Assembly: GCA_965197475.1 (NCBI GenBank)
Contig: CBDANF010000002.1
Span: 512,001-576,000 of the forward strand
Direction: 5' to 3'
Length of the DNA stretch: 64,000 bases
Origin: Candidatus Poribacteria bacterium
GTDB taxonomy: Bacteria; Poribacteria; WGA-4E; WGA-3G
Position numbers and translations under genes: made by a program. Positions 3,232 through 18,190 of this stretch are shown here, piece after piece (the stretch's first letter is position 1; each line of letters begins with the position of its first letter). Below the pieces are notes generated by a model. The model was not told the DNA's origin and did no database searches. It saw nothing but the letters and a program-made list of their open reading frames with translations.

Positions 3232-5826
3232 ATGAAAACTAAGTTATTTTTTATTTTTTTGACGCAATTACTAATTTCAACACTATTTTTATACAACAGC
3301 GTTGCCCAAGACTACACAACGTGGAATTTACCCGAGGGAGCCAAAGCACGCCTGGGTAAAGGGACTGTGAACGATATTGCATATTCCCCGGATGGCATGT
3401 ATTTCGCAGCTGTCAGTGATATAGGTATTTGGCTGTATGATGCCAAGACCTATCAAGAGGTGTCATTACTTACAGGGCATACGGGAGTTGTCCTGAGAGT
3501 CGCGTTCAGTCCTGATGGAAATACCTTCGCCAGTGGGGGTAATGACGGAACTATCCGTTTGTGGGATGCGGGGACAGGTGAACACAAACAGACACTTGAA
3601 CTCAAACAGACACCGCGTGTAGGGGAGCCTCCGTCTCTCTATAGTATTGCGTTTGCCCCGGATGGGAAAACACTTGCTATTAGTGGAGATTGGCACAACG
3701 GAATAGAGTTATGGGATGCAGTAGCAGGTGAACACAAACAGACACTCAGAGGGCATACGGATCTTATCCTTAGTGTGGTGTTTAGCCCGGACGGGAAGAT
3801 ACTCACCAGCGCAAGCTTTGATAAAACTATCAGATTGTGGGATGCGGGGACAGGTGAACACAAACGGACACTCGTACATCCGAATCGTGTCCGTGTCGTA
3901 GCGTTCAGTCCTGATGGACACACACTCGCCAGTGGAGGTTGGGACCGACCTATCCGATTATGGGATGTGGAAACAGGTGAGCTTAAGCAGAGACTTACAG
4001 GACATACCTATGGTACCGATAGCATTGCGTTCAGTCCTGATGGACATACACTTGCCAGTGGGAGTTTCAACGAAATCCGTTTGTGGAATACGATAACAAG
4101 TGGACTTAAACAGACACTCGTACATCCGGCGACTGTCTTTAGGGTAGCGTTCAGTCTTGATGGCAAGACACTCGCCAGCGCAAGTTTTGAGCAAACTATA
4201 CGTTTGTGGAATGCGGGGACAGGTGAACATAAACAGACACTCACATATACAGATCATGTCTCAAGCATTGCTTTTAGTCCTGATGGACAAATTCTCGCTA
4301 GTGGGGACCAAAGGATATGGTTGTGGAATGTTGGCACAAGTGAACACAAGCAGATATTTGCAGAGCATACGTGGGGTGTCAATAGCGTTGCATTCAGTCC
4401 TGATGGACAAATCCTTGCCAGTGGAGGCGGGGGCGGACTCGTCAAGTTGTGGGATACGGACACAGGTGAACTCAAGCGAACACTCATAACAGGTGAGGAA
4501 GTCGATAGTGTTAGTGTAGCATTTAGTCCCGATGGGCAGACGCTTGCCTGTGGAAGTGGGCGCGATATCCGTTTGTTGGATGTGGAAACAGGAGAACTCA
4601 AGCAGACACTCAAAGGGGTAGCGGATATCTATAGCATAGCATTCAGTCCCGATGGAAAAACACTTGCATGTGGAAGTGAAGACCGAACTGTTCGGTTATG
4701 GGATGTGGGAAAAGGTGAACAAAAGCAAATACTCAGAGGGCATACGCTGAGGGTCAATAGCGTGACATTCAGTCCTGATGGACACACACTCGCTAGTACG
4801 GGAAGACGCGAAGTTCGGTTGTGGGATGTGGAAACAGGTGAACAAAAGCAAACACTTGCGCATACCGATTTTTCTGGTGGCATTGCGTTCAGTCCTGATG
4901 GACATACACTCGCCAGTGGTGAATTGTTCAAAGTTCGGTTATGGGATGTGGAAACAGGTGAACAAAAGCAGGTACTCAGAGGGCATACGCGAGGTGTCTT
5001 TAACGTTGCGTTCAGTCCCGATGGACACACACTCGCCAGTGGTAGTAGTGATGGCACAGTGCTGCTGTGGAACACCACACCTACGCCAATCATAGAAACA
5101 ACCTTGCGATTTGAGGCACCCCCAGTACAATCCTATACTATTGGAGACCATCTAATGATACTGCTAAAAATCGTAGATGGAAAAAACGTCGCAGGCTATC
5201 GGGCGACTGTGTCCTATGACACCGATGCGCTCCGCTACGTTAAAAGTGCTAAAGGGGATTATTTACCAGATGCTATCTTCAGGCGACGCGTCGTTGATGG
5301 GAATAAGGTGATGCTTTCCGCAACATCTCCTGCGGGTGAGAACCATGGGGATGGTACACTTGCCACACTCACGTTTGAAATCTTGGCTTTCAAAACATCA
5401 ACATTGAAACTATCCGCAGTACGGCTCATTGATTCAGATGGCGTGAGTTCTTTGCCACAGATTATTGAAAATATGGATGTTGAAATAATTGAGGATGCCC
5501 GCGCTGTTGAACCGAATGGGAAGCATTACACGAAATGGGGACAGATTAAAACTGCAGCCGTTTTTCAAAACTATCCGAACCCCTTCAACCCTGAAACATG
5601 GATACCTTATACCCTTTTTGAATTGAGTGATGTTCAACTCTTAATCTTTGCCCCGAGTGGAGAATTGGTGCGAGAATTTAAACTTAGGCAGCAGTCCCGT
5701 GGCGATAAAGAGTTATATTGGGATGGAAAAAACACTGATGGTGAAACTGTTGCCAGTGGCATCTATTTCTATCAGTTTGAGGCAGGTAATACTCGAAGTG
5801 TGCGAAAAATGTGGCTATTAAAGTAG
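3232..5826 (+). CDS. Secreted WD40 beta-propeller protein with cohesin-like and FlgD/T9SS-CTD-like C-terminal domains
   Basis: Signal peptide, about 14 repeats of AFSPDG.TLASG...IRLWD, GDGTLATLTFE, QNYPNPFNPETWIPY...WDGKN..GE.VASGIYFY. Confidence 0.9.
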   Translation: MKTKLFFIFLTQLLISTLFLYNSVAQDYTTWNLPEGAKARLGKGTVNDIAYSPDGMYFAAVSDIGIWLYDAKTYQEVSLLTGHTGVVLRVAFSPDGNTFASGGNDGTIRLWDAGTGEHKQTLELKQTPRVGEPPSLYSIAFAPDGKTLAISGDWHNGIELWDAVAGEHKQTLRGHTDLILSVVFSPDGKILTSASFDKTIRLWDAGTGEHKRTLVHPNRVRVVAFSPDGHTLASGGWDRPIRLWDVETGELKQRLTGHTYGTDSIAFSPDGHTLASGSFNEIRLWNTITSGLKQTLVHPATVFRVAFSLDGKTLASASFEQTIRLWNAGTGEHKQTLTYTDHVSSIAFSPDGQILASGDQRIWLWNVGTSEHKQIFAEHTWGVNSVAFSPDGQILASGGGGGLVKLWDTDTGELKRTLITGEEVDSVSVAFSPDGQTLACGSGRDIRLLDVETGELKQTLKGVADIYSIAFSPDGKTLACGSEDRTVRLWDVGKGEQKQILRGHTLRVNSVTFSPDGHTLASTGRREVRLWDVETGEQKQTLAHTDFSGGIAFSPDGHTLASGELFKVRLWDVETGEQKQVLRGHTRGVFNVAFSPDGHTLASGSSDGTVLLWNTTPTPIIETTLRFEAPPVQSYTIGDHLMILLKIVDGKNVAGYRATVSYDTDALRYVKSAKGDYLPDAIFRRRVVDGNKVMLSATSPAGENHGDGTLATLTFEILAFKTSTLKLSAVRLIDSDGVSSLPQIIENMDVEIIEDARAVEPNGKHYTKWGQIKTAAVFQNYPNPFNPETWIPYTLFELSDVQLLIFAPSGELVREFKLRQQSRGDKELYWDGKNTDGETVASGIYFYQFEAGNTRSVRKMWLLK

Positions 5827-5853: not shown

Positions 5854-6441
5854 CTAAAAAAGTCTTTTTAATAAGTAATACCATTTCTCAATAATTATAT
5901 TCCATTTGCGACTTCGTGAAATATTTAAAATTGTGATTTGGGCAATAGCTGCCTTCGTATACTTTCTCAAGATTTGTGTGATTTTGTCCTGCATTTCCTC
6001 TATTGACCCCAATGTGTGCTGAAACAATTTGGCTTTGATGTCTTGCCAGAGTCTTTCGATCGGGTTCAACTCTGGACTATAAGGGGGTAGAAAAATCAAG
6101 GCGATATTGTCAGGAAGTTGTAGCGATTTCGCCTGATGAAAACGACCATTATTAAGCACAAGGATATTTAGCGTCTCTGGAAAAGTCTTTGCTAACTCAT
6201 CAATGAATACTTGGAAACAGACACCATTGAGCCAGGGCATTTCAAGGAAGAAACTTTCTCCTGTTATCGGTTCCACAGCACCGTATAGATAAAGGTTCTG
6301 GAAAGTGTAATTGATGTTGGCAATCGGTTTGACACCGGACACAGTAATACGCCGAGACGACACAGGCAAAAGACCACATCTTGACTCATCTTGGCAAAAA
6401 AGTCGGGCGTTTTGAAAAGAAGATGCCTTCTCCGAAATCAC
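5854..6441 (-). CDS. IS630 transposase DDE half
   Basis: QDESR, LNNGRFH (second catalytic Asp appears as Asn), LPPYSPELNPIERLW; aberrant C-terminus. Confidence 0.8.
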   Translation of the reverse strand: MISEKASSFQNARLFCQDESRCGLLPVSSRRITVSGVKPIANINYTFQNLYLYGAVEPITGESFFLEMPWLNGVCFQVFIDELAKTFPETLNILVLNNGRFHQAKSLQLPDNIALIFLPPYSPELNPIERLWQDIKAKLFQHTLGSIEEMQDKITQILRKYTKAAIAQITILNISRSRKWNIIIEKWYYLLKRLF

Positions 6442-7035
6442 CTCCTCAACTTTGGTAGCGAAGTTAGCAACGAACGCATCACACGCTACATCGTTTTTTT
6501 TTTATGACTTTTGCGAGGCACTTTGAGTTTGGCTTTCCATTTATACCGAACTAACGCATGAACTGTTTTATAGTGCATTTGGACACCGAAGGTTTCGGCA
6601 ATATAGTCTGTTATCTGTTGATAACTTGAAAAACCCTCCGGTTTTTCAAGTTCCGCCCGCAACAGATCTTGTTGTTCTTTAGATAGCCGAGGGGGACACC
6701 CCGGGGAATAATCACGATCCAAAAGCGCATCCAGTCCTTCGGACTCATAAGTCGATATCCAGTGTCCAATCGTTTTTCGGTTAACACCTATCAGCGCGGC
6801 TGCTTGTTTGCGAGTTGTCGCGTGACCACTGCGAAATAGGTAAAGGGCTGTCAATCTTTGCTTTTGATAACCTACGGGTGTCTTTCTCAACAGGCTTTTC
6901 AACTCTGAAACACTTTCTGTAATCTCTGGAGGCTTTATGTGCATTGGTGTCAATCCTATGATTTGTATAATTGGAAAAAGTATAGCAGAAATTGAAAACT
7001 TTTAAAAGGATAAATATATACAAGAAATGGTATTA
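5876..7035 (-). mobile_element. IS630-family element, probably inactive
   Basis: Inverted ends TAATACCATTTCT / AGAAATGGTATTA; two ORFs joined by an A10 run at 6494-6503. Confidence 0.85.
6486..6953 (-). CDS. IS630 transposase N-terminal HTH half
   Basis: HTH, winged-HTH, ends KLKVPRKSHKKK at the slippery A-run. Confidence 0.85.
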   Translation of the reverse strand: MTPMHIKPPEITESVSELKSLLRKTPVGYQKQRLTALYLFRSGHATTRKQAAALIGVNRKTIGHWISTYESEGLDALLDRDYSPGCPPRLSKEQQDLLRAELEKPEGFSSYQQITDYIAETFGVQMHYKTVHALVRYKWKAKLKVPRKSHKKKTM

Positions 7036-12336: not shown

Positions 12337-12456
12337 CAGAGGCATTCAGTTTTCGGTTTTGAATGCAGGAATCGGGATTCTGTACGCCTCTATCTACATA
12401 AATCGGGCTTAGAAAGCCCTCCCACAAGAGTCTTTTGTGACAATTGAATGGCTCTG
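12337..12456. mobile_element. MITE copy 1 (CAGAG(G/C)CATTCA TIR family)
   Basis: TIRs CAGAGGCATTCA / TGAATGGCTCTG; flanks AAAGCCCAGA / AAAGTCCAGA (9 of 10). Confidence 0.8.
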
Positions 12457-12462
12457 AAAGTC

Positions 12463-12531
12463 CAGAGCCATTCAGTTTTCGGTATTTTGTCCGTTTTAGT
12501 CGTAAAGTCGCGATTCGGAGATCGCTCCTAC
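12463..12531. mobile_element. One-ended MITE copy 2; its REP supplies the terL stop codon
   Basis: CAGAGCCATTCAGTTTTCGG followed by REP GTAGGAGCGATCTCCGAATCGCGAC (minus strand). Confidence 0.65.
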
Positions 12532-14453
12532 CGCAACTGTACACTGGCATGGTAGACGCGGCCGCTGCCGAGCCGTTGCCCGCCTTGTAGACTCAATATA
12601 AAATATGCGGTGCTGTCGATGCCGTGATTGTCACCTTTGATTGCCTCGTCATCCCTGTTCGTGCCCCGCATGTTCTCGTCATAAGTACAACTGAGAAACT
12701 CATCTGTGACTTCAAGTGGACGATATGTATCCTTCAAATCTTCATCTGGCGGATGGACAAGCCTATCCCGTAGGAAAAAGATTGCCGGTGCGCCGGTTGC
12801 GTCTACCTTTAGCCGTTCCTTGATAGCGTCAATTTGTGTGGCACGCGACTTTTTAGGTTGTTTGACAAGGAAACCTGCGCGCTGTAGCTGCTCAACTGCG
12901 TCCTGATCTGCACTGTCTACCGCTGCGTATTGTATGCGGTCTGAATTATCACAATTTGCTTGTATCATCCGTATGAAATCGGGCTTTGTGAGTTTTGTCT
13001 TGTATATCTCCTTGTATGCGTAGATGCGATCATCGTGGGACCGCGCCCACCATATACAGCTGGATGGGTTGCGGTATCCCCAGTCGATGCTGATATAGCG
13101 CGCCCATTTTGAGGAAATGGTGAAGTTGTCGATGACATGCACTTCTGGCAGAAATGTATCAAATACGAGTCCTTCCCCTGATGCCCATTTTCCTTCGTAT
13201 CCGCGTTTATAGCGCAATCCTTCAAGGTTTTGTAACCGTTCGACGCGTCGCTTGCCTTTTTCGGTTAACTCGCCAGTCTGTTGATTGTATATTTCGGGAT
13301 TGTCTCGGAATGTCATCTCGAAATATGCAAGTTTTCCAGCTTTTGTCTGCTGTCGAATCCAGTGGTTCGGTGTGCTAGGATTACAATCTCCGAGTAGGAA
13401 AGCGATGGGCATTGTGCCTGCGCGCTCGGAGACTCGTGCGGTGAGTTCGTCCCATGTATCGAATGAAACGAGTTCTGCTTGGTTGACGAACGCTGCATCA
13501 AAGAAGTCGGATAGTAGGTTCTGCGGTTTGTCTAATCCGTTCATGTAGATGCGCGATCCGTTCCAGTATTCAAAGAAGTCGGGATGTTCGCCGCCGTATC
13601 GTGTGATGGGTGTTGAATTCGGGTCGGCGCGACTTTTGGGTCGAAATCCGAGATATTTTTCATAAGTTGGGATGATGTTTCGGTATACTCTGTTGAGACT
13701 GCGGTGAATGAAGGTGAGTCGTGCGCCGGGGTATGTCCTCGCTAACTGGTCTATGTATGCGACGCAGCTAAAGGTTTTGCCTGCATCATAGGTGCCGCCC
13801 GCAATTTTTATGCTTGCGTGTGATTTGAATAGGTCGCGCATTTGTCCGTGAGGACAGAATCCGTTGGGGTTGTATTGGATGATGGGTGGTCTTTGTTTGG
13901 GGGCAGGTATGATGGTATATGTTTGCTGGTTTTGGCACTTGGTTTGCCCATTGTTTGCTATGTGCTTTTTGTCTTCCACCTCGGGTAGAGCGGATTGATA
14001 CTGCTCCATATCGGGATGCAGATGTGTTAGTAGTTGTGGTTCTTCGTCAGGCTGTTGGACTTCGTCGGTTTGTTCTGGATGGTCGGATTGCTCTGCTTGA
14101 TCGTTGGGTGTTGGATTGTGCAGCGATCTGTTGGTCTTTTGATTTTTTGCGTTATGTTTCGCTGCTTGTTTTTCCTTATATTTCCATTCGGAGATGCGTG
14201 CGTTGGTATCGTATCCTTGTTGGTCGATGTTTTCGCGTTTCCTCTGTGTGTCTTTTGTTCGAATAAGTTTGCCGTAGTCGTCTATACATTTGGATAGCTT
14301 TTTGGCTCTATCAGGATCGTTAACGTTCTTCTTGACTTTCTGAAATTCCTCATTAAGCACGTTCAACATCTCATCATACATGATATACGCCAGTTCTTTC
14401 GGATGGTTGTCTCGGCTGTTTTTACGGTTGGGGTGTCGTTTTTGTTTTTTCAT
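12528..14453 (-). CDS. Solo phage terminase large subunit-like protein (PBSX/Terminase_3 type) with N-terminal extension
   Basis: GGTYDAGKT Walker A, FVNQAE at Walker B position, GDCNP, HWI, DNP, G.W...EGLVF, IDWGYRNP, VDSA, DNHGIDSTAY. Confidence 0.85.
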   Translation of the reverse strand: MKKQKRHPNRKNSRDNHPKELAYIMYDEMLNVLNEEFQKVKKNVNDPDRAKKLSKCIDDYGKLIRTKDTQRKRENIDQQGYDTNARISEWKYKEKQAAKHNAKNQKTNRSLHNPTPNDQAEQSDHPEQTDEVQQPDEEPQLLTHLHPDMEQYQSALPEVEDKKHIANNGQTKCQNQQTYTIIPAPKQRPPIIQYNPNGFCPHGQMRDLFKSHASIKIAGGTYDAGKTFSCVAYIDQLARTYPGARLTFIHRSLNRVYRNIIPTYEKYLGFRPKSRADPNSTPITRYGGEHPDFFEYWNGSRIYMNGLDKPQNLLSDFFDAAFVNQAELVSFDTWDELTARVSERAGTMPIAFLLGDCNPSTPNHWIRQQTKAGKLAYFEMTFRDNPEIYNQQTGELTEKGKRRVERLQNLEGLRYKRGYEGKWASGEGLVFDTFLPEVHVIDNFTISSKWARYISIDWGYRNPSSCIWWARSHDDRIYAYKEIYKTKLTKPDFIRMIQANCDNSDRIQYAAVDSADQDAVEQLQRAGFLVKQPKKSRATQIDAIKERLKVDATGAPAIFFLRDRLVHPPDEDLKDTYRPLEVTDEFLSCTYDENMRGTNRDDEAIKGDNHGIDSTAYFILSLQGGQRLGSGRVYHASVQLR

Positions 14454-14508
14454 ACTGATATTATAACTGATGGTGGGTGGTGATCAGAAGTTTTTGTGGT
14501 GCGCGGAA

Positions 14509-14535
14509 CAATAGATATCCAATAGATATCCAATA
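14509..14535. repeat. 11-bp tandem repeat upstream of terL
   Basis: CAATAGATATC x2 plus a partial CAATAG. Confidence 0.7.
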
Positions 14536-14647
14536 GGTTTGTGGGAAAGGTGGGTTTGGAGGCGTTTTTTGTCTGAATCGCGGATTTGCGCGGAAGACGC
14601 GGATTTTAAGAGGTCTCTTTTGGACATGTATACTGCTAAGTGTTTAC

Positions 14648-14814
14648 CAGAGGCATTCAGTTTTCGGTTTTGAATGTAAATCCGTGCGATTTCCGGGTTC
14701 GGAAATAATGGGCGGGCACAGGGACCCGCCCCTACAATAGCAGTGTCTCTCTGAAGAAAATCGGGGTTACAAACCCCTCCTACAAGAGTATTTCGCGACA
14801 ATTGAATGGCTCTG
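14648..14814. mobile_element. MITE copy 3 carrying two REP hairpins
   Basis: Same TIRs; perfect 10-bp target duplication AAGTGTTTAC; REPs GTAGGGGCGGGTCCCTGTGCCCGCCC and GTAGGAGGGGTTTGTAACCCCGA. Confidence 0.88.
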
Positions 14815-14832
14815 AAGTGTTTACAGAATTGA

Positions 14833-14862: not shown

Positions 14863-14938
14863 GTTCATGTTAAGACAATTTATATATAAGATAAAAGTAT
14901 ATCAAAATCCTGAATAATAAATTTGGGGAGATGCTTTG

Positions 14939-16573
14939 ATGGTACAGGACATAGATAATACACTTTACGAGATGGACAATTTGGAGGTACTGCGTGGAAT
15001 CAATAGTAACAGCATAGACCTCATCGCAACAGACCCGCCATTTAATACTAAGCGCAACCGAAGCGGTACCGCTGGATTCTATGTCGATAAATGGAAATAT
15101 GGGGATACGGACAAACTTCCGGATCAATGGAAGTGGAATGAAGTCCATCCGAAATGGCTTGAAACTATCCAAGATGGACACCCTGCACTCTACCAAGTCA
15201 TTGAAGCCACAAAGGTTGTTCAAGACGAGGATACAGCTGCGTTTCTCTGTTTTCTCGGTGTCCGGCTCCTTGAAATGCACCGTATCCTAAAAGATACAGG
15301 TAGCATCTATTTGCATTGCGATCCAACCGCAAGCCACTACATCAAAATGTGTATGGATGCTATCTTTGGCAAAAAGAACTTCAGGTCTGAGATTACATGG
15401 AAGCGTGCAACATCTACACAAAAAGGCTCTCAACATCAGAGTAAAAGATGGGGAAATAACGCAGATATACTCTTGTATTATGCAGCATCTTCAGTCACAT
15501 CATTGTCTCCAGAGAGAGAATTGACAGAAACCGAAATCTTGGAGAAATTCAAACACGTAGACGAGAATGGACAACGCTATTACGACGACTCCGCCCATAT
15601 TTGGAGGACTCCAAATATGGGCGCGCGTCCGAACCTTTGTTATGAGTGGCGTGGTTTCGTCAATCCGCACCCATCTGGGTGGCGGTTAAGCAAAGAACGT
15701 TTGGAGGAGGAATATCAAAAAGGAAACATCGTTATTCGCTCTGATGGAAAACTGGAACGGCGGAAGTATCTAAAAGATTATAAAGGTGCATCCTATGGTA
15801 ATATTTGGGATGACGTGCCTCCACCCAGAGGTGAAGAACGCACAGGATCGCCCGACCAAAAACCGGTCACTCTCTATGAACGCATTATCAAAGCCAGTAG
15901 CAACGAGGGTGACATTGTGTTAGACCCGTTTTGTGGGTGTGCGACAACGATTATCGCCGCCAATAACCTTAAACGTCGGTGGATAGGTATTGATAGACGT
16001 AAAGACGCACGTTACCACATTATCACACGCCTTATGGGAATTGACCCAAAAGAGCGAAAGCGGATTGAGAAATACGCAACAGATAAAACATGGCTCGACA
16101 AACAGATGCAAAAAAATGAAATGCACTACCAAACTGAACCGCCTACCCGCACTGATAATCAGGAAACCGCAGCAGCCGAGTTACCACCTGTTCTTCCAAT
16201 TACTGAAGAATTTCAAATGACGCGCGCAGAAATACATAGGACGCTCGTAGAGCAGTTTGGACCTTACTGTTGGGGCTGTAATTTTGAGGCACCTGATCCG
16301 CGCTACCTTGAACTTGACCATATCAACCCAAAAAGTGGAAAGGATGACTATGGGCAGCATCATATTAATAACCGTGCGCTCTTATGTAAACCTTGTAACC
16401 TCGAAAAAAGCAACCGTATGACACTCCCTCAGCTGCGTAAAATCAACGAACAAAAAGGATATATGAAGGAAGGTACGCTCATTGACTTAAGCAGAGCAAG
16501 CGAATGGACGTGGCAATATCTTGTGCAACGGATTCGAGAAACGCCACATCAATATAACTTAAGGGGAATGTAA
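14939..16573 (+). CDS. Beta-class N4/N6 DNA methyltransferase fused to a C-terminal HNH endonuclease
   Basis: DPPF precedes DPFCGCATT; CWGC...LDHINPK...NRALLCKPCNLEKSN. Confidence 0.9.
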   Translation: MVQDIDNTLYEMDNLEVLRGINSNSIDLIATDPPFNTKRNRSGTAGFYVDKWKYGDTDKLPDQWKWNEVHPKWLETIQDGHPALYQVIEATKVVQDEDTAAFLCFLGVRLLEMHRILKDTGSIYLHCDPTASHYIKMCMDAIFGKKNFRSEITWKRATSTQKGSQHQSKRWGNNADILLYYAASSVTSLSPERELTETEILEKFKHVDENGQRYYDDSAHIWRTPNMGARPNLCYEWRGFVNPHPSGWRLSKERLEEEYQKGNIVIRSDGKLERRKYLKDYKGASYGNIWDDVPPPRGEERTGSPDQKPVTLYERIIKASSNEGDIVLDPFCGCATTIIAANNLKRRWIGIDRRKDARYHIITRLMGIDPKERKRIEKYATDKTWLDKQMQKNEMHYQTEPPTRTDNQETAAAELPPVLPITEEFQMTRAEIHRTLVEQFGPYCWGCNFEAPDPRYLELDHINPKSGKDDYGQHHINNRALLCKPCNLEKSNRMTLPQLRKINEQKGYMKEGTLIDLSRASEWTWQYLVQRIRETPHQYNLRGM

Positions 16574-16729: not shown

Positions 16730-18190
16730 ATGGTAGAATTCTATAGATTTAGAAGCATAGATGCTCTATTAGATAAATACCAAGAACTTGAGAAACGGAC
16801 TATCTATTTTGCTGATCCAGAAGAATTGAATGATCCAATGGAAGGTTTTCGAGATATTGTGTGGAATGGTGATAAAATTGTCTGGACCAAATTTATCAAG
16901 CATTATGTTTTTTGTCTACATCGGAGTTATTTGCTTCTTGCAATGGTCAGAAACTCTACTAAATTAGATGTGGACAGTATTCCAATATTAGACCGTTGGG
17001 ATCAACTTACAATTCCTTTAGAGAAGGATTTGTTTGATGGTATCTGGAATAATTTCCACAATTTACTTAACATAAAAGAAATCATTGAGGCATTAGCGCG
17101 CCCGGAGCGCAAAATCAGATATAGAGAGATCGGATATTATCTTCAAGGTATACACTTTGTTCTTTTAGGTGAAATCCAAAAATCACATATTGAACATGGA
17201 CTCATGTCCGAACTCCAAATTCCCAAACTATCTTACGAATTGTCTACCGCAGCATCAATGGAAAACCTCCTCAACCTCATAGAACTAACCGAGGCAGTCG
17301 AAGACGAAGAGCAACTCAACGCTATATTTCATGTATGTGGAGACCGATACGATGATATAAGGCTTGAGCTGCTGTACAATAGTCGAACAATACACACAGG
17401 AATATTAGCGAAGAATACTCAATTAGTGACAGTTGATTTTCCCAAGGTATACGTTGAACAACTTGAAAGGTTACTTTGGTCCAAGTGGTACACGGCTTGT
17501 TTTACGAAAAGTTACCACAACTCATCTGTATGGGGACATTATGGGGATAACCATAAAGGAGCCTGTTTGATTTTTGAAGCTATAGAAACAGATAACTCAA
17601 ATCAATTAGGTTTGAATCTAACAACCGATAGCGGAACCAGAACATTGTTTTTCCATGAGGTTAATTATGCAGAAAAACCATGTGAGATTGATTTCTTTCG
17701 AACCATTTGCAGAGAGATGACAGTGGATATGCTCATGAAACAGTGGTACACTGATCATGAAGGGAACACCTCTAAATGTGCCGCGCATATTGAATCACAG
17801 GGAGGCGATGAAGATGTGTGGAAAAAAAGATATTGGGAGGATGTATTTCGCGACATTACTACCAAAACCACAGATTGGGCGTATGAGCAAGAATGTCGTC
17901 TAATTTTAGAAGACGGCTTAAGTCAATTCAATGAAAAAAAAGAACGCACACTAATTTATGACTTTAATTCGTTGAAAGGTATTATTTTTGGGATCAAAAC
18001 ATCAACTGAAGATCAAATGAAAATCATTAATATTATAGAAAAAAAGTGGGGTAAAAACAAACGGACTGACTTTAAGTATTATCAGGCTTACTACTGTCCT
18101 ATAAAGAGGAAGATTCGCAAGAGGCAGATATATTTGCCATTTTCTAATGTTAAAGATACTGACCAAGCCGTCTCAACGTCCAACCAATAA
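16730..18190 (+). CDS. DUF2971 domain protein
   Basis: FYRFR, LNDPMEG, ACF...WGHYGDNHKGACLIF, KTTDWAYEQECR, GIIFG. Confidence 0.85.
   Translation: MVEFYRFRSIDALLDKYQELEKRTIYFADPEELNDPMEGFRDIVWNGDKIVWTKFIKHYVFCLHRSYLLLAMVRNSTKLDVDSIPILDRWDQLTIPLEKDLFDGIWNNFHNLLNIKEIIEALARPERKIRYREIGYYLQGIHFVLLGEIQKSHIEHGLMSELQIPKLSYELSTAASMENLLNLIELTEAVEDEEQLNAIFHVCGDRYDDIRLELLYNSRTIHTGILAKNTQLVTVDFPKVYVEQLERLLWSKWYTACFTKSYHNSSVWGHYGDNHKGACLIFEAIETDNSNQLGLNLTTDSGTRTLFFHEVNYAEKPCEIDFFRTICREMTVDMLMKQWYTDHEGNTSKCAAHIESQGGDEDVWKKRYWEDVFRDITTKTTDWAYEQECRLILEDGLSQFNEKKERTLIYDFNSLKGIIFGIKTSTEDQMKIINIIEKKWGKNKRTDFKYYQAYYCPIKRKIRKRQIYLPFSNVKDTDQAVSTSNQ

Follow-up and report, generated by a model that had tools for sequence, protein, structure and literature searches.

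A stand-alone terminase large subunit of phage origin and its leader-fused relatives in one genus of Candidatus Poribacteria

A terminase gene outside a phage module

We analyzed a 64,000-nucleotide stretch of DNA (the window) from a Candidatus Poribacteria bacterium (GenBank assembly GCA_965197475.1, contig CBDANF010000002.1, positions 512,001 to 576,000 of the forward strand) and, within it, a gene that encodes a terminase large subunit (TerL). The gene is an intact open reading frame (ORF) that starts with ATG, occupies window positions 12528..14453 on the minus strand, and encodes 641 amino acids (aa); we refer to the protein as P0001 and to the genome that holds the window as G000, where the gene is present in a single copy. 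A first-pass annotation of the window had described the coordinates, the length of the product, its motif strings, and its leader correctly. The gene is derived from a phage and belongs to a dispersed, concertedly evolving family that has long been kept in one genus under strong constraint.

TerL homology covers residues 199–619 of P0001. PHROG terminase families are matched at E values of 1.7e-19, 3.5e-13, and 1.3e-4, with the nuclease region included in the matches, and a family profile matches the D6E TerL in the PDB at E 1.4e-13. A Pfam scan of P0001 found no TerL family, and TIGR01547 scored 69.5 bits, under its curated cut-off of 105.05. The best match from an isolated phage is the TerL of Streptomyces phage Dagobah (29.8% identity, E 4e-54), and coverage of P0001 stays below 80% in all 541 matching phage records. 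An AlphaFold2 model built from 107 aligned sequences, with a mean predicted local distance difference test score (pLDDT) of 85.6, has D6E TerL as its top PDB fold match (5oea_A, E 2.4e-24), followed by the TerLs of Sf6, T4, and HK97. Like these tailed-phage proteins (D6E 5oe8/5oea, Sf6 gp2, T4 gp17, and HK97), P0001 has an additional strand, catalytic glutamate (ASCE) type of ATPase and an RNase H-like fold, together with the Walker A lysine and the acidic nuclease residues. The Walker A motif reads GGTYDAGKT (residues 219–227), and its K226 is invariant in alignments A1 and A4. The nuclease motifs are SIDWG (455–459), AVDSA (511–515), and GDNHGIDS (607–614); D457 and D513 are invariant in the same two alignments, and D608 and D613 are nearly so.

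P0001 is unlike the tailed-phage TerLs in that it is solo, fused to a leader, and chromosomal, and in that it carries Asn-Gln where D6E has Asp/Glu. No terS (terminase small subunit, TerS), portal, capsid, or integrase gene lies near it in the window, in agreement with the lack of phage context reported at first pass, and the gene does not sit in a head-packaging module. Around the window gene and 15 distinct solo loci we found no integrase, repressor, or att site, and no conserved partner gene recurs across this set. When G000 (92.7% complete) was searched by tblastn with the portal, capsid, and TerS-like proteins of the related phages described below, there was no match, other head families not being included in the search; scans of G000 for PHROG portal and capsid families also gave no match, but the controls were equally silent. 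The earlier suggestion that the gene is a dispersed component of a gene transfer agent (GTA) finds no support in G000, since the tblastn search with the related phages' head proteins came back empty.

GTAs and satellites, such as phage-inducible chromosomal islands (PICIs, including the Staphylococcus aureus pathogenicity islands, SaPIs) and capsid-forming PICIs, also possess host-resident terminase genes of phage origin, and these are clustered with head genes or with an integrase and regulators. The P0001 family, in contrast, consists of a lone gene in one to seven dispersed copies, and the search of G000 for head genes of that phage type gave none. Full-text literature searches returned no paper describing such a stand-alone terminase family.

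Active site and leader in relation to phage-borne relatives

The family splits into two forms, fused and short. The short form (477–485 aa; loci L004–L014, L072, and L075–L086) is found on uncultured Candidatus Poribacteria phage contigs, and its TerLs are 62–64% identical to P0001 over residues 187–641, with the FVNQxE site and the nuclease motifs common to both. They differ from P0001, and from the outgroups, by a 24-aa insert after DNPEI. At each of the 21 short-form loci with this insert, on viral and genome contigs, an ORF in the TerS position precedes TerL and a portal gene follows it, and a major capsid protein is encoded downstream in 19 of the 21 within the DNA examined. The short-form phage TerL is thus a separate gene, placed between a winged-helix ORF of 191–240 aa and the portal, protease, and capsid genes. 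One such phage-type module (L076) lies on a 144,777-bp record filed as the whole chromosome of a Poribacteria metagenome-assembled genome; the record could represent an entire large phage or else an episome.

At the Walker B position P0001 reads AAFVNQAELV (residues 320–329) and so lacks the canonical hhhhD with its catalytic Glu. In a profile alignment FVNQAE overlies FFDEVA of the solved D6E TerL, with N324 and Q325 replacing the Asp and the catalytic Glu. The D6E paper assigns catalytic roles to Glu E143 and to Arg R44 of the P-loop, and D223 of P0001 occupies the place of R44. The idea that the DE-to-NQ change marks a crippled ATPase fails against the family as a whole: NQ is carried by 116 of the 120 best relatives, in the form (FV/FI)NQxEL, with NE in one and three outside the pattern, and it is present in members at all 21 portal-encoding loci, 19 of them also encoding a major capsid protein. 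Alignment A1 shows no variation at N324 or E327.

A search of 1.84 billion cluster representatives yielded 4319 relatives. Among the query and the best 149 of these, positions 324–325 are NQ in 57, another residue followed by Gln in about 26, and any residue followed by Glu in about 60, which bears out a caveat in the annotation that NQAE-type variants may occur in genuine phage terminases. For the 131 representatives alignable at both sites, Glu stands at position 327 in all 74 Q325 types, Asp or Glu at P-loop position 223 in 56 of those 74, and the P-loop is one residue shorter in 56 of the 57 E325 types. Five TerLs from isolated phages that we aligned (Dagobah, P1312, Asis, HCTV-16, and LE1) all have Glu at 325 and none has NQ, and with an NQAEE-type representative as query the best isolate was 39% identical, which is not a close match; the NQ type is therefore known here from uncultured sequences only. 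In a large TerL subclade, then, NQxE and the acidic P-loop residue vary together as an alternative active site. By the same alignments, P0001 carries the full active-site set of its own clade, namely the Walker A Lys, the acidic P-loop residue, NQxE, and the acidic nuclease residues.

The leader of P0001 comprises 190 aa. AlphaFold2 places helices at residues 13–42, 49–79, and 85–103, and a helical hairpin spans 13–103; residues 105–135 are rich in Q, P, and E and have low model confidence, while an ordered piece at 141–160 contains the motif HLHPDMEQYQSALPE and aligns to the tail of the phage upstream ORF. In a tblastn search, residues 26–641 of P0001 read across two adjacent ORFs in L009–L012, where the upstream ORF stops within a few bases of the TerL start. 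The leader corresponds to the C-terminal two thirds of the phage upstream protein, and in the alignment the winged helix of that protein (about 70 aa) is absent from it. By the leader alignment and the missing winged helix, the gene is a fusion of a TerS-position protein, without its DNA-binding domain, and TerL. The idea of a TerS-TerL fusion raised at first pass is accordingly supported by tblastn and the alignments for part of the TerS-position protein.

A TerS usually begins with a winged helix, continues in long helices, and ends in a tail that touches TerL. The phage upstream ORF is laid out in the same way, and its C-terminal tail is conserved; its N-terminal winged helix gives PDB profile matches at E 1e-4 and, in several members, matches Pfam helix-turn-helix (HTH) families. 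A BFVD fold search with the TerS-like protein returned winged-helix proteins as the sole matches, and an ESM Atlas search gave no usable match. The phage ORF thus resembles a TerS in position and layout, and its tail is predicted to contact TerL, but known TerS families and folds are not matched; it may be termed TerS-like by position and layout alone. In the complex predicted for a phage pair, tail residues 182–203 lie on the N-terminal part of the TerL ATPase domain with a score of 0.67, compared with 0.00 for the best of three controls, the prediction runs have at least 33% of contacts in common, and the partner's pLDDT is at least 55. Of 80 solved complexes 58 attained this mark, as did 2 of 110 mismatched pairs; the counts are rough because our own alignments were used. 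The prediction supports putative binding of the tail to TerL. Compared with a TerS, P0001 retains the helical part and the tail and has lost the DNA-binding domain.

Distribution, selection, and chromosomal setting of the family

All 48 loci from a search of one genome per species belong to Candidatus Poribacteria. We then scanned 176 genomes of the phylum, representing 31 genera, and found any match in 6 genera. The fused form is confined, among the genomes scanned, to the window's genus (g1), where it occurs in 16 of 39 genomes as well as in G000; the remaining 23 have no match. Fused copies number one to seven per genome, with seven in G005 and six in G021. Internal stops occur in three g1 matches (two in G106 and one in G107) and in none of the other g1 matches listed, and the matches in G010, G041, G045, and G046 run to contig ends. 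A solo form of 456 aa without the leader is also present (P0016–P0022; L025, L052, and L056). The closest homologs of P0001, at 75–82% identity, are likewise solo copies.

Strong purifying selection acts on the core of the protein in all intact copies examined. The ratio of nonsynonymous to synonymous substitution rates (dN/dS) of the core is 0.034–0.079 at a dS of 0.30–0.68 in comparisons across species of the window's clade, and among paralogs within G005, G021, and G024 it is 0.011–0.107 at a dS of 0.15–0.36; all 20 copies in this comparison are intact. The leader evolves faster than the core (dN/dS mostly 0.13–0.54), and G021 has two leader types on similar cores. The dN/dS check suggested by the first-pass annotation therefore shows a gene that is not neutral. 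Its picture of a neutrally evolving relic with nearest homologs in intact prophages departs from the data on both counts, the nearest homologs being the solo copies.

By flanks on one or both sides, one locus is common to six species (L045, L046, L048, L049, L050, and L077), and copies in G005, G021, and G107 pair by flanks at several loci. Between G005 and G021 the dS is 0.72–1.14 whether or not the copies share a locus, while within-genome values are lower (0.17–0.36), and copies of one genome group together in the tree. The shared loci and the within-genome likeness imply that the family is older than these species and has evolved in concert, a pattern that indicates gene conversion among copies of one genome. 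Identical tracts exceed those in any of 300 shuffles in 2 of 21 G005 pairs, a result that is only suggestive because rate variation along the gene was ignored. In a tree with distant outgroups, the fused forms split off before the insert-bearing phage clade. Several copies coincide with rearrangement breakpoints: L087 has the flank of one G005 locus on its upstream side and that of another on its downstream side, and at L063 and L068 the flanking DNA is turned round with respect to the gene. The duplicate at L046/L047 carries 1.5 kb of flank along.

The homology between the window and its 80%-identical relatives ends at 12529 and at 14541–14548. G005 and G021 paralogs have the ORF and about 90–150 nt upstream in common, and the extra upstream sequences in some of these copies are non-coding repeat mosaics. 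TATAAT lies at 14460–14465, 6 nt before the ATG, and no Shine-Dalgarno sequence is visible upstream of that ATG, so the mRNA is probably leaderless or nearly so; this promoter was read from sequence alone, and a simple promoter scan did not list the TATAAT site. Direct repeats at 14509–14536 read CTATTGGATAT / CTATTGGATAT / CTATTG. A second iteron-like set (TTATTGGATATATATTG...), which resembles the terminase promoter repeats, lies on G000 contig C3 at about 3474440–3474481 on the minus strand; it is the sole other occurrence in G000 and sits inside a repeat mosaic with no gene attached. At the ends of the unit we saw no terminal inverted repeats, target duplication, or recombinase of its own, and the unit does not have the features of an insertion sequence (IS); only the independent miniature inverted-repeat transposable elements (MITEs) on its two sides show ends and a duplication (Table 1).

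Table 1. Features of the terminase gene and its immediate surroundings in the window
Feature	Position	Strand	Basis or remark
Coding sequence of P0001, fusion of a TerS-position-protein remnant and TerL	12528..14453	-	ORF, PHROG, AlphaFold2 fold match
TerL ATPase domain, about residues 199-410	13224..13859	-	Walker A 13773-13799, FVNQAE 13470-13496
TerL RNase H-like nuclease domain, about residues 420-641	12531..13196	-	D457, D513, D608, D613
Helical leader, residues 1-103	14145..14453	-	Alignments A3 and A6; homologous to central helices of the phage ORF plus KRW..GYDTNxR motif
Linker and tail, residues 105-160	13974..14141	-	AlphaFold2 and alignment to C-terminal tail of the phage upstream ORF
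Conserved upstream region travelling with the ORF	14454..14548	-	Homology to copies of other species
(AATCCGNG)n-ATTCAGACAA tandem 8-mer module	14569..14607	-	Upstream of nearly all fused copies
Repetitive extragenic palindromic (REP)-like repeat, GTAGGAG plus short GC-rich hairpin, into MITE end	12463..12530	-	Begins inside the stop codon
MITE copy, downstream of the gene	12337..12456	.	Repeat comparison
MITE copy, upstream of the gene, independent insertion	14648..14814	.	10-bp target duplication

Repeats border the unit on both sides. The (AATCCGNG)n-ATTCAGACAA module has 60 pattern matches in G000, its own included, when two mismatches are allowed. Many of its copies continue into TTGACA...ACTTTACACACCC, resembling an outward-facing promoter, and it may be a mobile promoter-like intergenic module of genus g1. 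The REP-like repeat proper lies at 12503–12530 and has 40–48 copies in G000; a GTAG-hairpin repeat stands just 3' of the stop in nearly all fused copies, with a hairpin variant that differs between species. The MITEs noted at first pass on both sides of the gene are present at the positions in Table 1. A target duplication, AAGTGTTTAC, at 14638–14647 and 14815–14824 encloses the upstream copy, the terminal repeat reads CAGAGGCATTCAG..., the family ends read CAGAGGCATTCAGTTTTCGG..., and a further MITE end lies at 12463–12491. This MITE family is very abundant; in two sequencing runs the summed contig depth over its repeats exceeds that over neighbouring genes by a factor of about 20 to several hundred.

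The copies occupy variable slots. In G000 the unit adjoins uppS, and the same site is empty in G043, which retains the methylase; in G017 it holds the upstream repeat module without the gene and a different 5.5-kb insert. The G020 uppS site (L040 1525–1950) has three tandem 141-nt MITE-like copies with the ..AAAGTCGCGATTCGGAGATCGCTC.. module. On G000 contig C3 the flanks of the six-species locus are 4 Mb apart, and the unit alone is found at a new locus. In three species that lack the gene, the six-species locus is filled differently, with a DUF1828 / PDC-M24B-like pair in G008 and G003 and with other ORFs in G020; the G008 cassette (L098 6253–7491, with the same slot in L099 of G003) encodes proteins of 149 aa (weak DUF6978) and 261 aa (DUF1828), with a PDC-M24B match at E 1.3e-20. 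In contigs from four sequencing runs the joints were short-sided and lay in repeats, and no contig cleanly bridged an empty site.

Interpretation and neighbouring genes

We propose that an ancestor of one Poribacteria genus took up the terminase genes of a Poribacteria phage lineage, that the TerS-position gene shed its winged-helix domain and the rest was joined in frame to TerL, and that a promoter-plus-ORF unit of about 2 kb was retained as a family of one to seven copies. The product would be an ATP-driven DNA translocase-nuclease with no DNA recognition via a TerS winged helix of its own; the retained TerS helical part may serve oligomerisation, and the TerL-binding tail would also have been kept. 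Its most likely role would be to act on the packaging machinery of related phages, or on their replicated DNA, and so disrupt packaging. Such interference would proceed through a catalytically active enzyme and not a dead decoy, and the faster-evolving leader would determine which phage is matched. Phage satellites are reported to re-aim or interfere with helper packaging. Taken as one statement, an exapted phage terminase that interferes with the packaging of related phages has, in our estimate, slightly less than an even chance of being right. Exaptation of a phage terminase by the host genus is, by itself, likely, and the stand-alone, host-resident terminase proposed at first pass is supported. 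The anti-phage packaging-interference mechanism is a tentative suggestion and, by itself, rather doubtful.

Several observations weigh against this proposal. Decoy action or interference has no obvious need for both catalytic centres to be so strongly conserved. The phage-type form was found in genera g13 (14 of 65 genomes) and g6 (2 of 20) and was not seen to infect g1. The phage upstream ORF has no TerS family match in Pfam or PDB sequences and no TerS fold in BFVD, and the family tree is rooted on a very long outgroup branch. P0001, P0018, and P0044 matched none of the PADLOC model families. Among the 105 neighbour ORFs of the 15 solo loci there were only a handful of defence-type matches; the rate per ORF was no lower in 32 control ORFs from another part of the window, so an association with defence islands is rejected for want of enrichment.

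The discrete limits of the unit, from promoter to stop (12529 to 14541–14548), would also suit a selfish 'homing terminase' whose own nuclease breaks DNA at or near its copies or repeat-marked empty slots, repair then spreading and homogenising the cassette; the family would then persist through its own propagation and not through any service to its host. Such an element could leave a patchy distribution with up to seven copies, matches at contig ends and three g1 matches with internal stops, as well as the G000 unit alone at a new locus, with the shared-locus flanks far apart and the site empty in G043. Homogenisation would fit the closer likeness of within-genome copies than of same-locus copies between species, and the long identical tracts in 2 of 21 G005 pairs against 300 shuffles, and the upstream module and downstream GTAG-hairpin repeat could act as homology arms. 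However, both repeat types are common elsewhere in G000, the unit ends without terminal inverted repeats or target duplication, the copies are syntenic between species, and a paralog dS of 0.17–0.36 argues against a recent burst. Moreover, the L046/L047 duplicate with its 1.5 kb of flank resembles an ordinary segmental duplication, and RecA-driven gene conversion suffices for concerted evolution with no self-cleavage. We regard homing as unlikely, though far from negligible. A new selfish element built on a terminase, cutting at the bracketing repeat modules or empty slots with repair copying the unit, would explain the concerted evolution, the G000 relocation, and the breakpoints at copies; we judge this unlikely.

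A minimal phage parasite would require the fused terminase to dock on procapsids of related phages and package host DNA, itself included, as a one-gene satellite or GTA-like device. The ATPase, nuclease, and C-terminal region are conserved as in working phage TerLs, the identity to TerLs of same-phylum phage contigs is 62–64%, and the repeat module upstream of nearly all fused copies could be a packaging start site; yet this module stands at many sites without the gene, the lost part is the winged-helix DNA-recognition domain itself, integrase, repressor, and att-like ends were not found, and the family keeps the same loci between species instead of moving, all of which makes the parasite quite improbable. 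Long retention and strong selection are equally what a host DNA-processing enzyme unrelated to phages would show, such as a translocase-nuclease that assembles by itself and acts in recombination, repair, or the rearrangement of the genome. The breakpoints that coincide with copies (L087; L063 and L068; the split flanks in G000) might be its work, but passive homologous recombination predicts breakpoints at dispersed repeats too, and a gene without a match in 23 of 39 g1 genomes and without conserved partner genes is evidently dispensable, so that this explanation is also an unlikely one. A prophage remnant in decay, whether or not it includes a dead ATPase as a passive decoy, would account for phage derivation without phage neighbours and for the stop codons in a few G106 and G107 copies. 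It is hardly credible in view of the core dN/dS of 0.011–0.107 at a dS of 0.15–0.68, the 20 intact copies of 20 compared, the lack of internal stops in most listed g1 matches (three exceptions), and an NQ site that is the clade's usual one. The selection and conservation data contradict a neutral relic or dead decoy, and with it the dominant-negative decoy of the first-pass annotation, NQ being the normal site of the clade and the core strongly constrained.

If exaptation of a phage terminase is correct, a constrained, multi-copy host TerL family outside virus-like clusters would represent a novel fate for the gene that tailed phages conserve most strongly. It would also offer a candidate in which packaging interference, or a selfish element driven by a terminase, could be tested. 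The NQ clade would, if its reading holds, be a case of catalytic carboxylates that work in a different arrangement, within a large and so far uncultured group of TerLs. The NQxE/P-loop pattern would then bear on ATP hydrolysis by TerL motors, and a 'missing DE' should not be equated with inactivity.

Among the neighbours of the window gene, those downstream on the same strand encode UppS, a trypsin-like protease, a TIM-barrel protein, and RsgA. Upstream and divergent lie a fusion of an N6/N4 DNA methylase (methyltransferase) with an HNH nuclease (14936–16573, plus strand) and a DUF2971 protein (16730–18190, plus strand) that matches the PADLOC candidate defence system PDC-S31 at E 4.8e-21. An IS630-like transposase is located 5.6 kb off as an HTH ORF (6486–6953) and a DDE_3 ORF (5854–6441), both on the minus strand, and the pair is probably a frameshifted or programmed-frameshift IS. 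TnpB / Cas12f-like (OrfB_IS605) genes occur, at varying position, near the solo loci L045 (7976–9157, minus strand), L070, and L085 and near the phage-type locus L079. An 864-aa WD40 protein is encoded at 3232–5826 on the plus strand, and WD40/PQQ beta-propeller paralogs, which are abundant in these genomes generally, lie near many loci.

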